DNA from: Promethearchaeota archaeon
GTDB lineage: Archaea > Asgardarchaeota > Hermodarchaeia > Hermodarchaeales > Hermodarchaeaceae
Assembly: GCA_048938295.1 (NCBI GenBank)
Contig: JBHLMI010000004.1
Coordinates: 30,001 to 62,000, forward strand
Direction of reading: 5' to 3'
Length of the DNA stretch: 32,000 nt
How positions within the stretch are numbered: the stretch's first letter is position 1; every line of letters starts with the position of its first letter. Made by a program: the position numbers and the translations under genes. Positions 6,020 through 15,066 of the stretch are shown here, piece after piece. The notes below the pieces were generated by a model. It was not told where the DNA came from. It saw only the letters and a program-made list of their open reading frames with translations, and did no database searches.

Positions 6020-6589
6020 TTAGTGATCGATAAGTTCCTGAAGTAAATCTCCAATCTCTTGAGCGAGCGGATGATTGGGCTCTTTCTCCAGCAGTTGTTG
6101 AGCCCTTTCAAGGGTGTTAATCGCATCAAAGGTGAATCCAGTTTCGCGGCGATGAATGGTTGCATTTTTATAGAGTAGTTCGATGGCAAGTGAAAGTTCG
6201 TTGAGTGCAATTGACAAATCAATGGCTTTTTCAACGGCTTGGGTGATTGCTATCCAAAGGTCTTGATTCTTTTCACGAACGGCGAAGAAGGAGTTAGCTG
6301 CTGCAAGATATGAGTCACGAGCTTCGCTTTTCCGTCCTTGTTGGGCTTCAAGGTCAGCAACCCTAAGGAAGCTATGACCTGCTTCATATGGCGCTTCTGC
6401 AGCCGTGAAGCCTGCTGCCGCATGTGCCCATAATTGTTCGAGCTGACTAATTTTCTCAGCTGCCTCTAGTTTCCCTGATGCCTCCTCGAATTCTAGAAAG
6501 GCACGTGAGCGTTGACCCTCACGGATGAAATCTTCAGCATTCTCAAGATGTTCTTCAATTGCTCGACGGAGTTGTTCTTCATCGCTCAT
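6020..6589 (-). CDS. All-helical TPR/alpha-SNAP-like protein
   Basis: Ala-rich helical repeats (WAHAAAGF..A...EAGHSF.RVA.L..Q...K.EA..SY..AANSF) resembling the N-terminal helices of alpha-SNAP; compared from memory. Confidence 0.6.
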   Translation of the reverse strand: MSDEEQLRRAIEEHLENAEDFIREGQRSRAFLEFEEASGKLEAAEKISQLEQLWAHAAAGFTAAEAPYEAGHSFLRVADLEAQQGRKSEARDSYLAAANSFFAVREKNQDLWIAITQAVEKAIDLSIALNELSLAIELLYKNATIHRRETGFTFDAINTLERAQQLLEKEPNHPLAQEIGDLLQELIDH

Positions 6590-6781: not shown

Positions 6782-7711
6782 ATGTCTCGACAAGCACTGA
6801 GTATAGCCATCATTCTCTTCATAATGGTCGGTGGATGGAATTCCTATGCGTTACAGGCATTTCAGGTGATAGCCTATGTTCCAAGTGAGGGCCATTTTAC
6901 GACCTATGATTATGGCTTCATTAACGTTCTTTATAACCAATCCGCGGTCCAGATAAATCAGTGGACTGAGCTCGTTCTTGATCCTGGAAATTATACCATG
7001 CATTGGCATCAGCATGTGAATTTGTCGATTCTGGTTATGCAATTAATTCCGAATGGTGCCGTTTTCCAGGCCTATTACAATTTCTCGGTTATAGTCTTCA
7101 GCAATGTCGTCACTGTGTCGAATAGTAGTTCCTGGCAAACCATAGTCTCTTTAAATGGATCTGTTCCGGCTCCAGCTCCAACCGGAGTGAGTTCCGGTCT
7201 TGTTGACTACCCCATGACACAGGGGCTTCCAGGATTCTTCCTTGACGACACTACCTTGAGCACAATTACTCCTGGGTTAAATGTAATCGTTGGGGGAAGC
7301 TCTTGGCAGTCCATCACTCACACAGCATTTACACTGGGAGATGACGAACAATTGTGTTATCGTTTCTTCAACCAAAGTTCTAGTCAAGATCAAGACACTG
7401 AGACCACATACGTCATTGACCACGATGTGGGTATCTACTACCAAGCAAATGAAACCCGGATTACTACCGTCGGCTCCTCAATCGTCTATCTATCATATTA
7501 TTATCAAGTACTTACCACAAATATCTCGTTAATCCCTCCGCCAAGTCCCTTACCTATTTACATTGCGGCTGCAATTGCGACCATTGTGCTGGTTATTGTT
7601 GTGACCTTAATAGTTCGTGCGTTATGGTTACGCCGCAAACTTCGCGGCTCCTTAACAACGGCTTCAGAATCGACCTATTCTGAATTGCGTTCTATGGATA
7701 TATCTCTCTAG
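6782..7711 (+). CDS. Single-pass cell-surface glycoprotein of unknown function
   Basis: N-terminal signal peptide (LSIAIILFIMVGG), beta-rich ectodomain with many N-x-S/T sequons, Pro linker PPPSP, C-terminal TM (IYIAAAIATIVLVIVVTLIV) and basic stop-transfer RALWLRRKLR. Confidence 0.75.
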   Translation: MSRQALSIAIILFIMVGGWNSYALQAFQVIAYVPSEGHFTTYDYGFINVLYNQSAVQINQWTELVLDPGNYTMHWHQHVNLSILVMQLIPNGAVFQAYYNFSVIVFSNVVTVSNSSSWQTIVSLNGSVPAPAPTGVSSGLVDYPMTQGLPGFFLDDTTLSTITPGLNVIVGGSSWQSITHTAFTLGDDEQLCYRFFNQSSSQDQDTETTYVIDHDVGIYYQANETRITTVGSSIVYLSYYYQVLTTNISLIPPPSPLPIYIAAAIATIVLVIVVTLIVRALWLRRKLRGSLTTASESTYSELRSMDISL

Positions 7712-7741
7712 GTTTCGAAATTCAGTGGAAACCCATTTATA
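7711..7741 (+). promoter_or_regulatory. Palindrome GGTTTC-N11-GAAACC (7711-7733) directly upstream of TATA box TTTATA (7736-7741)
   Basis: Seen directly. The TATA box is about 30 nt before ATG 7772, consistent with a leaderless or short-leader transcript. Confidence 0.45.
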
Positions 7742-7771: not shown

Positions 7772-8797
7772 ATGATACACCAACTGTATCATTTTCACAA
7801 AAGTGGACTCGTGCTGACTTCCATTGGATTCGGTCCAATGACAGTGAACGTAAGCCCTGAACTCGTCTCAGGATTTCTCTCAGCCCTTCGAATGTTTGGA
7901 CAAGACCTTCTTGCGGATGATGTCACAACCATCGAAACGGGTAATTACCAGTTCGTCTGGGATTTCGCAGATCCTGTCTTGAGCGTGGCCCTCGCTGACC
8001 GAGAAGACGATGACGTCTCAATCATGGCCGTGCTCAAGACCCTCAACGCCTTGTTTCTAGACCGCTATCAAAAAGAGCTACGTCGCTGGACCGGAGAAAT
8101 TGCACCCTTCCGGCATTTCAACCCTATAGCTAGAGAGGTTGTGCAAGATTACTTACCAACCTTCGAAAAACCTCCGGAAACTGAAGCCCTCCGCCCAGCA
8201 ATTATTAGGCTTTGGCGCCGCTTTGGTCAGGGATTAGACATCCTTTTATATGGGCTCCTGCGGGGTATGCCAATCCTTGCAGTTGGACGGAAATCAAGAA
8301 ACCAGTCAGTGATTCGAGCACTTCAGACGATGCGTGGTCGACGAATCCCTGTAATGTATTTTGATGATGCAGGTGCAGCGCTGCAAGTGCTAAGAGATCG
8401 ACCACCCAACATGTCATTCATTCTTAGTCTCCCCAATCGCGCTTATGAGGAAACCTTTGCAGATTCATCCAATATGGGACTCACATATACCTGTCTATTA
8501 GTCGAAGAACACATCGTGTTGCCAGTGGGCTTTGATGCCAAATCATTGGGAATAGCTGATACCGTCGCACACGCCGAGAAGGTGCTTGGAGAAAGTGGGG
8601 CGGAACTGCGGAATATTACTGAAACGGCGTTTCTCACTGTCCGAGAAAGAATTAGAGGAGTAGCTAAACTTCTTGCACAGACGGACAAGATCCCGGATGA
8701 TGAGGCCGCTAGACTCCTTCGATTGGCAAAAGATGATTATTATATCTTCAAGGAACTGGCAATAGAAGGAGGTTATGTGAGACGTGCCCGAAAATGA
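7772..8797 (+). CDS. Longin-domain protein with a putative cDENN-like middle domain and C-terminal helical/wHTH-like segment
   Basis: aa ~1-125 fit the Asgard-type longin pattern (LYHFHKSGLVL; ELVSGFLSALRMFG; LF...Y...L..WTGEIAPF..F). aa ~150-250 (ILLYGLLRGMPILAVG ... VIRALQTM ... FILSL ... CLLVEEHIV) fit the cDENN core pattern by eye. Confidence 0.6.
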   Translation: MIHQLYHFHKSGLVLTSIGFGPMTVNVSPELVSGFLSALRMFGQDLLADDVTTIETGNYQFVWDFADPVLSVALADREDDDVSIMAVLKTLNALFLDRYQKELRRWTGEIAPFRHFNPIAREVVQDYLPTFEKPPETEALRPAIIRLWRRFGQGLDILLYGLLRGMPILAVGRKSRNQSVIRALQTMRGRRIPVMYFDDAGAALQVLRDRPPNMSFILSLPNRAYEETFADSSNMGLTYTCLLVEEHIVLPVGFDAKSLGIADTVAHAEKVLGESGAELRNITETAFLTVRERIRGVAKLLAQTDKIPDDEAARLLRLAKDDYYIFKELAIEGGYVRRARK

Positions 8798-9314
8798 AGA
8801 GACTGATAAGAGCCGCATTGAGAGAGAAGCTCGTACCTATAAAAAGATTCATGCTCTCCCAAAACGGTATTTTGACCTGATGAATAACGGAAGCACGCTC
8901 GCAAAACAGGGGAAATTTTCAGAAGCTGCAGAGACATTTGCTGAAGCCCGAGGAGAGGTAGCTAAGATTCTGCAACAACTCCTTGAGATGCCTAAAGAGC
9001 CCAAGACACAGATGTGGCAATTCTTTGGTATTCTCTGGGCATTCAAGCTCATCAAGAGTGTGTTCTATTATTTCCTTGCCCGAAGCGAGGCAGTTCAGAC
9101 GACAAAGGAGCGAGAAGCCCTACTAATGGCAGCTTTAGGTGCCCAACGCATTGGTGCAGATATGATCCCAGCCTTTGAAACACTGAACCAAAGCTTTACA
9201 GGTGAAGATCAAGACCTTCTTCCAATGCTGGGTGAAGCGATACGAAATTACGAAGAGAGACAGCGGATTTTAGAAAAAGCTTTAGCCAAACAAGGTTTGG
9301 ATTTCCGCATCTAA
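8784..9314 (+). CDS. Helical TPR-like hypothetical protein, overlapping the upstream gene by 14 nt
   Basis: LMNNGSTLAKQGKFSEAAETFAEAR is a TPR-like helix pair. The rest is predicted amphipathic helices. Confidence 0.55.
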   Translation: MPENEETDKSRIEREARTYKKIHALPKRYFDLMNNGSTLAKQGKFSEAAETFAEARGEVAKILQQLLEMPKEPKTQMWQFFGILWAFKLIKSVFYYFLARSEAVQTTKEREALLMAALGAQRIGADMIPAFETLNQSFTGEDQDLLPMLGEAIRNYEERQRILEKALAKQGLDFRI

Positions 9315-9321
9315 GGAGACC

Positions 9322-9339
9322 CTTTTTTCTGAAAAAAAG
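9322..9339. terminator. Oligo-T/oligo-A tract (CTTTTTTCTGAAAAAAAG) just after the stop at 9314
   Basis: T6 then A7 directly after the gene. Oligo-T tracts are the established archaeal termination signal. Confidence 0.45.
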
Positions 9340-9454: not shown

Positions 9455-9479
9455 TGTCTTCAAGTTGGAGGATACAAAA

Positions 9480-9656
9480 TTGGCTGTTGATAAAATCGTA
9501 AAGAAAGCAATTTCAGCAAAAGCCCACAAGATGGGCTTCAATGTTTCTGCAGACGCATACAAAGCAATCGATGATGCTGTTGAAGCACTCATCACCAAGG
9601 CCACCCACCGAGCCAAAGCCAACAAGCGTAAGACCTTGATGGCCTACGACTTCTAG
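9480..9656 (+). CDS. Short histone-fold protein of the alpha3 class (face-to-face / bacterial-dimer type)
   Basis: NVSADA...AVEALITKA...AKANKRKTLMAYDF. The RKT..D motif is present, the alpha2 helix is 4 residues shorter than in HMf (as recalled), and the protein ends right after the Asp. GGAGGA at 9467-9472 supports TTG 9480 (58 aa) over the ORF-track start at 9465. Confidence 0.85.
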   Translation: MAVDKIVKKAISAKAHKMGFNVSADAYKAIDDAVEALITKATHRAKANKRKTLMAYDF

Positions 9657-9749: not shown

Positions 9750-10370
9750 CTAAGGGGTAAGCCCCTCATTTTCTGTGGTTCTTAACATTGTATCTTTCTT
9801 CCGTATCCTCTGATAAAGAGGAACAGCGAGGTAAGTGCGGATGATTAAGTATAGGGAGAGAAAGATCCCGACGAAACCAATTGCAATGGCAGCGAAGTAG
9901 GTGAAGGCGGCAATAAGGCTGGGGCCCCAGGCAAATGTGTGTATCGGGATGGCATACAAATGGAGTTGAAGCATAATGAGTAGGGCAGTAGGTGGTGCAA
10001 AAGGCATGATGAGAATAGGGACGAGTGCAGCGGCAATGAGGATTATGGATACAATGATGAAGGCAATAGCTAAAGGAACAATTGCTGAATCAAGAGATAT
10101 TCCCCTTTGTCCGATGAGGAGAAGAATGTGTTCATTGATATTGACAACGAGGGTCAAGACGACTGTGGTCATACAGGTCCCAATAATCCAGCTGAAGATA
10201 TAAACAACCCAAGAAGCATGTTCGGATTCAACACCAAAAAGAGAAAGAAAGGATTCATTGTACTTGAAGAACCAAGGAAGATAACGACGAAGACCGAGGA
10301 TTAAAACAGAGCATATGATTAGGACTGCCGTTGTAATGAAGAACCAAATTTGGTGGAGAGCCAAGCTCAT
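9750..10370 (-). CDS. Polytopic membrane protein (about 5 TM), unknown function
   Basis: Five long hydrophobic segments and a basic C-terminal tail. No recognised motif. Confidence 0.65.
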   Translation of the reverse strand: MSLALHQIWFFITTAVLIICSVLILGLRRYLPWFFKYNESFLSLFGVESEHASWVVYIFSWIIGTCMTTVVLTLVVNINEHILLLIGQRGISLDSAIVPLAIAFIIVSIILIAAALVPILIMPFAPPTALLIMLQLHLYAIPIHTFAWGPSLIAAFTYFAAIAIGFVGIFLSLYLIIRTYLAVPLYQRIRKKDTMLRTTENEGLTP

Positions 10371-10481: not shown

Positions 10482-10540
10482 CGGTTACGCCAATTAGAGA
10501 GTATTGCAGCGGAGTGATTAGCAAAAGCGGTGGAAGTGGT

Positions 10541-10927
10541 ATGTCTTCAACGTTGGATTCGCTAACAGACATCTTAGAGGAGCTTAATAAAACGGGTCGA
10601 GTGAGTGCAAGCATAGTCGCAGATGAAGAAGGATTCGTTATTGCTTCAGCGGTTAGTCGCGGTGTCGATGAAAAAGTCGCTGCAGTAATGGGAAGCATCG
10701 TTTTTAATAACGCCGATAGAGCCAGAGACGAGTTGAAATTAGGCTTAATGCGCGACATCACGATCCGATGCGAAAAAGGCTCTTTGGTGTGTAAGTCTAC
10801 GCCATTAGAGGACGGTAGACCTGTGGTCTTGGCGGCTTTGGTCCCACGAGCCACGAGATTCTATATCCGACAAATCAATAACTCATTGCGAAAAATACAG
10901 AATGTTCTCCGCGAACTGAATATCTAA
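10541..10927 (+). CDS. Roadblock/LC7 (MglB-like) domain protein
   Basis: Pattern L.DILEEL...GRVSASIVADEEGFVIAS ... VAAVMGSIV..ADRARDELKLG.MRDITIRCEKGSLV. ATG 10541 is preferred; the ORF track starts at GTG 10514. Confidence 0.85.
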   Translation: MSSTLDSLTDILEELNKTGRVSASIVADEEGFVIASAVSRGVDEKVAAVMGSIVFNNADRARDELKLGLMRDITIRCEKGSLVCKSTPLEDGRPVVLAALVPRATRFYIRQINNSLRKIQNVLRELNI

Positions 10928-14127: not shown

Positions 14128-15066
14128 TTAGGGTATGCGTCGGGTCAGTGGGTGGACTTCACAGGTACGATTTTTGCAGGTAGTGCACTCGGAACTTTGA
14201 TGCACCCAATAGTGGTCAAACCGTTCGACGAACTGCTTAACAAATTCCAAGTTGTTGGTCCAAGTAGCTTGTTCTCCGATCCCTGAGAGGCCTTTATTGG
14301 TAAAGTTAGCGCTCCCTTCTAGAACCTCTGATTCATCGATGATGAGAGATTTGATATGCATTTGAGCGCAGACTAGTATTTCGATCTTGGGTGCATCACT
14401 GAGAACTGTCTCAACGGCTTCTTGAAAGTGTGTGGCTGCAGCACCGAAGGCTTCGGGTTCCCGAATGATAATACGAATTTTAACACCTTCATTGGCTTTT
14501 GTTGTGAGCCGGCTGAGTAGGTTTACGTCGCAGGATTCAGTGCCTACGTTAATGGTTTTAACATCGGTGAAGTTCTGGACCATGATTCGGATACTGTGGC
14601 TGGCGCGGTCCAGCATCTCGACAAGGGTGCAGGCAATGGAGATCCCTTTGAGAAGTTGATGATGGTTTGAACGAACCCCTTCCCGGTATTCCAAGGGAGG
14701 TTCCCCAGTGCTATCTGTTTCCAGCTCTTCGTGGAGATCATCACCTGGAATGGGTTCCCCATCGTGGGTGATGGGTTCAGATATTGCCGGTACCTGGTTA
14801 TCGGGGAAGAAGCTATCCAATGCATCGACCAGATGCATGGGAAGGGGTTCTTCTCGCCGTAGGACTTTGGTAATCTCGACAAGAGTCTTTGCTCGTTGAT
14901 AGGCGAGTTTTGAAGAGGAGCCTGTAGAATGTTTTGCGATTTCGTTGAAGGCTTCAGCTGCTTTGAGTGCAGCATCGGATGCACGTTGAAAATCTCCTTG
15001 ACCCATGAACTTTCGGATGAGCAAGAGTGCTTCCTTTGCCACACGGCCTAATCGGGTAGTACTCAC
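14128..15066 (-). CDS. MIT-like three-helix domain + acidic/Pro linker + single-HKD phospholipase D/nuclease domain + C-terminal Cys/His motif
   Basis: Canonical HxKxxxxD (HIKSLIID, nt 14335-14358) followed by GSANFT; A..SIRIMV and GVKIRIII strands; C-terminal CTTCKNRTCEVH; N-terminal ~65 aa three-helix pattern like Vps4 MIT domains. Confidence 0.75.
   Translation of the reverse strand: MSTTRLGRVAKEALLLIRKFMGQGDFQRASDAALKAAEAFNEIAKHSTGSSSKLAYQRAKTLVEITKVLRREEPLPMHLVDALDSFFPDNQVPAISEPITHDGEPIPGDDLHEELETDSTGEPPLEYREGVRSNHHQLLKGISIACTLVEMLDRASHSIRIMVQNFTDVKTINVGTESCDVNLLSRLTTKANEGVKIRIIIREPEAFGAAATHFQEAVETVLSDAPKIEILVCAQMHIKSLIIDESEVLEGSANFTNKGLSGIGEQATWTNNLEFVKQFVERFDHYWVHQSSECTTCKNRTCEVHPLTRRIP

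Follow-up and report, generated by a model that had tools for sequence, protein, structure and literature searches.

The window analysed here is a 32-kb stretch of DNA (C33:30001-62000 in the genome; all positions below are counted within the window) from a sediment Asgard archaeon whose 2.5 Mb genome is 91.6% complete. It carries two overlapping open reading frames (ORFs) on the plus strand, ORF1 and ORF2. Structure prediction supports the assignment of ORF1 as a longin and DENN-like protein, and the ORF2 product is predicted to be all-helical. According to the ORF listing and translation, ORF1 (7772-8797, +) encodes 341 aa from an ATG start to a stop codon at 8795-8797, with the ATG at 7772 coinciding with an N-terminus (MIHQLY...) that is conserved in the alignment of its orthologues. 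ORF2 (8784-9314, +; translation) encodes 176 aa from a GTG start and begins within ORF1, its frame opening at 8781 and the GTG at 8784 being the first possible start, which gives an overlap of 14 nt. As DNA contigs of two other metagenome runs bridge the ORF1-ORF2 junction with zero differences, the overlap is no assembly artefact; an earlier sequence-only reading of this stretch had also described a 14-nt overlap, with which the frame, the start position and the independent metagenome contigs all agree.

Candidate expression signals flank the pair. A TTTATA element (7736-7741, +), a candidate archaeal TATA box read from the sequence at ~30 nt before the ORF1 ATG, suggests that ORF1 is served by a promoter of its own and that its leader is very short, and a T6 run (9323-9328, +), nine bases past the ORF2 stop, is a candidate archaeal terminator that would end a two-gene transcript, both elements being compatible with such a transcript as judged from their placement. 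A Shine-Dalgarno-like GGAGG (8768-8772, +) lies within the end of ORF1, 11 nt before the ORF2 GTG, and GGAGG or a close variant is present in about half of the junction windows of the 15 loci examined. In one wetland metatranscriptome library, 151-nt contigs fell on the 5' part of ORF1 only, possibly through DNA carry-over, and no contig of that library bridged ORF1 and ORF2.

The structure of ORF1 was modelled with AlphaFold2 from a 27-sequence alignment (predicted local distance difference test (pLDDT) score 82.7, predicted template modelling score (pTM) 0.76). The longin (uDENN-like) domain occupies residues 1-131 of the model (7772-8164, +) and consists of two strands, a helix, three strands and two helices, of which the order up to the first of the two closing helices covers residues 2-104. 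A longin pattern at the N-terminus had been proposed from the sequence, and the model agrees, with this part matching Sec22b in domain realignment (Z 16.1, root-mean-square deviation (rmsd) 2.3, 125 residues aligned). The DENN part, residues 142-341 (8195-8794, +), comprises a cDENN-like core at about 144-272 and a dDENN-like helical end at about 277-340. Its middle section contains a helix at 154-164 (ILLYGLL), a strand at 168-171 (ILAV), a helix at 174-185 (VIRALQT) and strands at 194-196, 217-220 (ILSL) and 239-243 (CLLV), which reproduces exactly the helix-strand order that had been read as a cDENN core. The tail (residues 261-340) is wholly helical and can be superposed on the helices that close a DENN module; of the earlier description of a helical or winged helix-turn-helix-like tail, the helical part therefore stands and the winged part does not, since the model has no beta wing there.

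Domain realignment of residues 142-341 returned DENN proteins in every row that covered this region, the leading match being DENND10 (8p0v_M; Z 13.6, rmsd 3.6, 177 residues aligned), followed by the folliculin C-terminal domain (3v42_B; Z 12.0, 173 aligned), DENND1B (3tw8_A; Z 12.0, 178 aligned) and DENND1A (6ekk_A; Z 11.1, 183 aligned). In these alignments of a predicted model with solved structures, 173-183 residues superpose at rmsd 3.5-3.7, and the Z scores compare with a noise level stated as about Z 7-8 for an alpha/beta domain. Structure prediction and Foldseek had been proposed as a check on the cDENN assignment, and the middle domain does superpose on DENN domains (Z 11.1-13.6). In whole-chain Foldseek searches, the top match in the PDB was folliculin (1.8e-5), then C9orf72, DENND1B, FNIP2, DENND1A and DENND10, and the top match among Swiss-Prot models was DENND10 (residues 1-331), then DENND11, C9orf72, folliculin and DENND2B/C. 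All whole-length structural matches of ORF1 are longin-DENN proteins with the same domain order, C9orf72 aligning across 288-300 residues. An ESM Atlas shape search gave matches to the longin domain and nothing else.

Among these proteins, DENND10 (FAM45A; Q8TCE6; 8p0v chain M) is the best ORF1 match in both libraries (E 5.3e-7 among Swiss-Prot models; the Z 13.6 given above for the DENN part) and shares the three-part build at a similar size (357 aa), although the two proteins are 11-12% identical and sequence profiles show no similarity between them. In the eukaryotic Commander complex, DENND10 docks onto the CCDC22-CCDC93 coiled coils and works bound to long helical partners. CCDC22 and CCDC93 have been reported to be restricted to eukaryotes, and DENND10-like folds in archaea have been mentioned without follow-up (PMC13392464). 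The Rab35 exchange factors DENND1A and DENND1B (6ekk, 3tw8) have the uDENN-cDENN-dDENN order in common with ORF1 at 8-11% identity, but their long C-terminal extensions are absent in ORF1. Folliculin and C9orf72/SMCR8 (6nzd, 3v42, 7mge, 6lt0), subunits of GTPase-activating protein (GAP) complexes, also have a longin-DENN build like that of ORF1, whereas ORF1 lacks their GP motif and no Rag-type GTPase is linked to its gene. In a folliculin-type heterodimer the second subunit is itself a longin-DENN protein, while the coupled partner of ORF1 is all-helical and its paralogue lies on another contig.

At the sequence level, ORF1 matched nothing in Pfam beyond a sub-threshold Fuz_longin_1 hit (E 0.0098), which recurs as a weak match in 24 of the 27 family members; NCBIfam and PDB sequence searches gave no match, and language-model atlas searches gave nothing useful. 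A word-indexed search retrieved 42 clusters of homologues (51-96% identity), all unannotated, and the few that bear names are labelled as Promethearchaeota metagenome-assembled genomes. Conserved sequence patches include IETG, LKTLN and RRIPVM. An exhaustive search added the distant full-length relatives P0046 (25% identity, residues 2-330) and P0045, both on contigs too short for gene context, together with ~90 further proteins that match residues 1-130 only. Among these longin-only relatives are proteins with Pfam longin-type matches as well as fusions to Arf-like GTPase or Roadblock domains.

The model of ORF2 (pLDDT 86.1; 49 homologue clusters) has six helices, the last three of which are 29-31 residues long, and the helices that follow a tetratricopeptide repeat (TPR)-like hairpin measure 24-31 residues each. 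Foldseek found nothing below E 0.09 (PDB) or 0.039 (AlphaFold clusters) for this protein. In a wide structural alignment designed helical repeats lead (Z 13.3) and TPR proteins reach ~Z 10, both values lying inside the stated noise for helical proteins. The earlier description of ORF2 as TPR-like holds for a single weak feature, a TPR_2 hairpin at about residues 29-62 that scores sub-threshold, at a best E of 0.0056, in eight of 22 members; it does not extend to TPR repeats, as three or more tandem 34-residue units are absent by TPR profiles from the same 22 members and the structural matches are to generic helical repeats. The most conserved stretch of the protein is an aromatic helix at residues 73-103 (W78, Q79, W85, F87, K88, L89, K91, F94), which one might speculate to be an interface or a membrane-facing helix. 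The predicted complex of ORF1 with ORF2 scored 0.01, a value that speaks neither for nor against binding.

The distribution of the pair was assessed in a phylum sample of 301 genomes, in which the ORF1-bearing family f1 makes up a whole class (19 genomes, two genera). Full-length ORF1 matches (E below 1e-150) are confined to this class, where 17 of the 19 genomes, including that of the window, encode the protein. Among the 18 other class genomes, 17 encode ORF2, which adjoins ORF1 wherever both are found, and 16 carry the overlapping pair. In all 15 of the loci examined ORF2 begins inside ORF1, most of them having a GTG at an equivalent position, and the overlaps measure between 14 and about 44 nt; overlaps were also called for distant orthologues. 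Metagenomic orthologues at 51-60% identity keep both the pair and a wider gene order. The expectation that the pair would be conserved across Asgard genomes was not borne out: it was not found in the 282 sampled Asgard genomes outside the class, and its range is that of one small class and metagenomic relatives down to 51% identity.

A profile of the DENN part gave weak matches in 24 of the 29 genomes of another family (f4), mostly in ORFs of ~300-360 aa, which share the pattern GxD-x-(I/L)LY-x-L-x-G-x-P-(I/L)-hydrophobic-x-G (helix-strand-helix) at the start of the alpha/beta core. One of them (L031:5240-6220, genome G026) aligned with the ORF1 profile at an hhalign probability of 91.6%, over a region that starts where the longin domain closes and reaches the opening strands of the alpha/beta core, and nothing ORF2-like is encoded beside it. 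The f4 proteins, whose gene context differs, probably form a remotely related sister family of longin-DENN proteins. The sole ORF2-like protein outside the class (genome G004, L023:5909-6415; 27% identity, E 4.4e-18) is encoded ahead of an FtsX-type permease gene, with nothing DENN-like beside it.

The gene order kept in the distant metagenomic loci runs from a DegT aminotransferase through a SNAP-like protein (minus strand), a single-pass surface protein, ORF1, ORF2, a small ORF, a membrane protein (minus strand) and a Roadblock/LC7 protein to a NERD-like protein. In the window, the SNAP-like gene (6020-6589, -) encodes a 189-aa protein that exceeds the cut-off for Pfam SNAP (soluble NSF attachment protein; 34.3 bits, E 2.3e-8) and holds its position in distant orthologous loci; a kinship of ORF2 with this neighbour was ruled out (hhalign probability 1%). 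The next gene (6782-7711, +), whose place is kept in relatives, encodes a protein with a hydrophobic segment near its N-terminus, a large number of N-x-S/T sites and a membrane anchor at its C-terminus, and was rejected as a second longin-DENN subunit on these features of a single-pass surface protein. A DUF354 (glycosyltransferase-like) gene lies between the SNAP-like and surface-protein genes in three distant loci (L001:3729-4982, L002:3684-4787, L005:3856-4935) and is absent from that position in the window. Right after the pair, preceded by a TATA-like sequence, comes a 63-aa ORF (9465-9656, +) with a sub-threshold histone-fold match (E 3.7e-5), and then a gene for a 206-aa protein with several membrane spans (9750-10370, -; five transmembrane segments (5-TM)), whose place is likewise kept in relatives and which was ruled out as a hidden GTPase on account of those spans and the lack of a Pfam match. 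This histone-like ORF and the minus-strand membrane-protein gene separate the pair from a Roadblock/LC7 gene (10514-10927, +; E 9.9e-10), located 1.2 kb downstream of ORF2 and at an equal relative position in the distant loci L001, L002 and L005. Further downstream, a PLD-like (PLDc_2) protein is encoded at 14128-15066 (-) and recurs downstream in distant orthologous loci.

The genome is rich in small GTPases, a whole-genome search having returned 33 matches to the Ras profile (PF00071) and 33 to the Arf profile (PF00025). As the sequence-only reading had stated, no small GTPase gene is present in the 32-kb window, in which neither profile placed any of its 33 matches. A paralogue of ORF1 (349 aa, 30% identity across 195 residues) is encoded on contig C8 (C8:13663-14340, -; locus L011:6298-7347) without an ORF2-like partner, in the neighbourhood of a Rab-like GTPase gene (C8:10607-11086; L011:3569-4117). 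In four of five class genomes the best-scoring Ras/Rab-like GTPase of the genome is encoded 2.4-5 kb downstream of the paralogue, on the same strand. An AAA/STAND-type ATPase gene is found between the two, and a 402-aa ORF near the paralogue, considered as a relative of ORF1, proved unrelated. DENN-domain proteins in Asgard archaea, including some of folliculin build, were described by Liu et al. (bioRxiv 10.1101/2020.10.19.343400; Nature 2021), who reported families of paralogues from several Asgard lineages, predicted an association with Roadblock proteins and Rab-like GTPases, and noted a conserved operon in which genes for a Roadblock-type protein and a Rab-like GTPase accompany that for a DENN protein. 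The neighbourhood of the paralogue resembles that DENN/Rab-like GTPase/Roadblock neighbourhood, whereas the ORF1 locus has no GTPase gene and an overlapping helical partner instead; only the C8 paralogue, and not ORF1, lies near a Rab-like GTPase.

We hold, with somewhat more confidence than doubt, that the DENN module of ORF1 and the ORF2 protein act jointly as a regulator of a Ras-superfamily GTPase encoded elsewhere in the genome. ORF1 would be a compact three-part DENN module, made up of a longin (uDENN) domain, an alpha/beta cDENN core and a helical dDENN end; the two genes would be transcribed together, with translation of ORF2 probably coupled to that of ORF1, and their products would most likely form a complex that binds and regulates one of the many Ras-superfamily GTPases of the genome. 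It is the conserved gene overlap that suggests such a complex, in which the DENN and longin surfaces would, by analogy with known DENN proteins, hold the GTPase, and ORF2 would serve as an accessory or targeting subunit. GTPase binding by ORF1 and the direction of regulation are matters that we infer, and a DENND-type role, as an exchange factor or a non-catalytic platform, appears more likely than that of an arginine-finger GAP. In favour of this proposal stand the agreement of the fold searches, the recurrent overlap of the two genes, the number of Ras-family matches in the genome, the Rab-like GTPase gene near the paralogue, the longin relatives fused to Arf-like GTPase or Roadblock domains and the Roadblock/LC7 gene kept downstream of the pair. 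Several observations weigh against this proposal. The Pfam DENN family (PF02141) has zero matches in the whole genome at E<=1, and no DENN, folliculin or NPR2 Pfam family matches any of the 27 ORF1 members (E<=1); with no sequence-level DENN signal in the protein, its 26 aligned relatives or the genome, the DENN assignment is a structural one, and it rests on a structure predicted from a shallow alignment (51-96% identity). The nearest GTPase gene is ~28 kb from ORF1. DENND10, the closest match, is a Commander subunit in eukaryotes and no established exchange factor. Synteny kept inside one class may merely reflect kinship.

That missing sequence signal, the shallow alignment behind the model and whole-model TM-scores of just 0.36-0.43 would all be expected if the DENN likeness were an artefact of modelling or fold convergence and ORF1 were a longin fused to an unrelated Rossmann-like alpha/beta domain. 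We regard this as very improbable, because the TM-scores come with a large whole-chain rmsd (~10-29 Å), whereas the single domains superpose at rmsd 2.3-3.7, which points to differing domain orientations. In addition, every realignment row over residues 142-341 is a DENN protein, there is agreement in domain order and in the helical end, and the remote relative in f4 shares the helix-strand-helix motif (hhalign 91.6%). If ORF1 is a true DENN module, it could still be a non-catalytic adaptor that docks on its helical partner, as DENND10 does in Commander, and takes no action on a GTPase, in which case it would be linked with the membrane- and trafficking-type genes around it (SNAP-like, Roadblock, membrane proteins). 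The top rank of DENND10 in both libraries and its like size (357 aa), the long helices of ORF2 with the highly conserved aromatic helix 73-103, the lack of a nearby GTPase gene and the conserved neighbourhood of SNAP-like, single-pass surface, 5-TM and Roadblock genes are all in keeping with such an adaptor. We nevertheless consider it unlikely, given that ORF2 has no specific structural match, that homologues of other Commander subunits did not turn up (none were sought), that the link of the paralogue to a Rab-like GTPase points to GTPase biology, and that CCDC22 and CCDC93 are reported as eukaryote-restricted (PMC13392464).

A folliculin/SMCR8-type GAP, in which a Rag- or Arf-like GTPase receives an arginine finger from the ORF1 longin domain while ORF2 takes the place of FNIP or C9orf72, is also to be weighed against regulation of a DENND type. 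Arginine fingers are known in folliculin (FLCN R164) and SMCR8 (R147), and ORF1 has a nearly invariant arginine, R77 (D-R-x-D-D), in the loop after longin strand 5, which might serve in this role, although it is Lys in P0038. The longin GAP class (folliculin, SMCR8, C9orf72 and NPRL2) is recognised by a GP motif immediately ahead of longin strand 2, with an arginine finger close by, and Asgard folliculin-like longins that retain both have been reported (PMC12290439), which lends the GAP model some plausibility, as does the position of folliculin as top PDB Foldseek match and the Z 12.0 of its C-terminal domain. In ORF1, however, the GP motif is absent, the loop before strand 2 reading K10-S11-G12-L13, and in the alignment this Gly precedes Leu, Met or Ile in all full-length members and never Pro, which makes a DENND-type role likelier than that of an arginine-finger GAP. 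DENND10 and DENND11 rank above folliculin among Swiss-Prot models and, as the best matches there, make ORF1 look closer to the DENND than to the folliculin class; there are zero Pfam folliculin or NPR2 matches and the partner ORF2 is no longin protein. We judge a GAP of this type to be improbable. Comparably doubtful is a more specific form of the proposed GTPase regulator, a minimal two-subunit assembly in which ORF2, with its aromatic helix, would replace the second longin-DENN subunit or tether the DENN module to a membrane; if true, it would be a two-subunit DENN-complex architecture without a eukaryotic counterpart and specific to one Asgard class.

DENN modules were long regarded as eukaryote-specific, and their presence in Asgard archaea bears on the origin of the GTPase-based membrane-trafficking machinery. 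Longin-DENN proteins are already known from Asgard archaea (Liu et al.), to which ORF1 adds a further unannotated one; what sets it apart is that its longin is DENND10-like and not of GAP type, that the gene of a helical partner overlaps its own and that it is restricted to one class. With this family, a further Asgard class is seen to have a compact longin-DENN protein the size of DENND10, and the conserved overlapping partner gene makes it a small two-protein system that is easily expressed. Through its link to a Rab-like GTPase, the paralogue points to a first candidate for a client. The picture drawn by Liu et al. is unchanged by these findings, and the value of the pair lies in providing a tractable test case for the function of an archaeal DENN protein.

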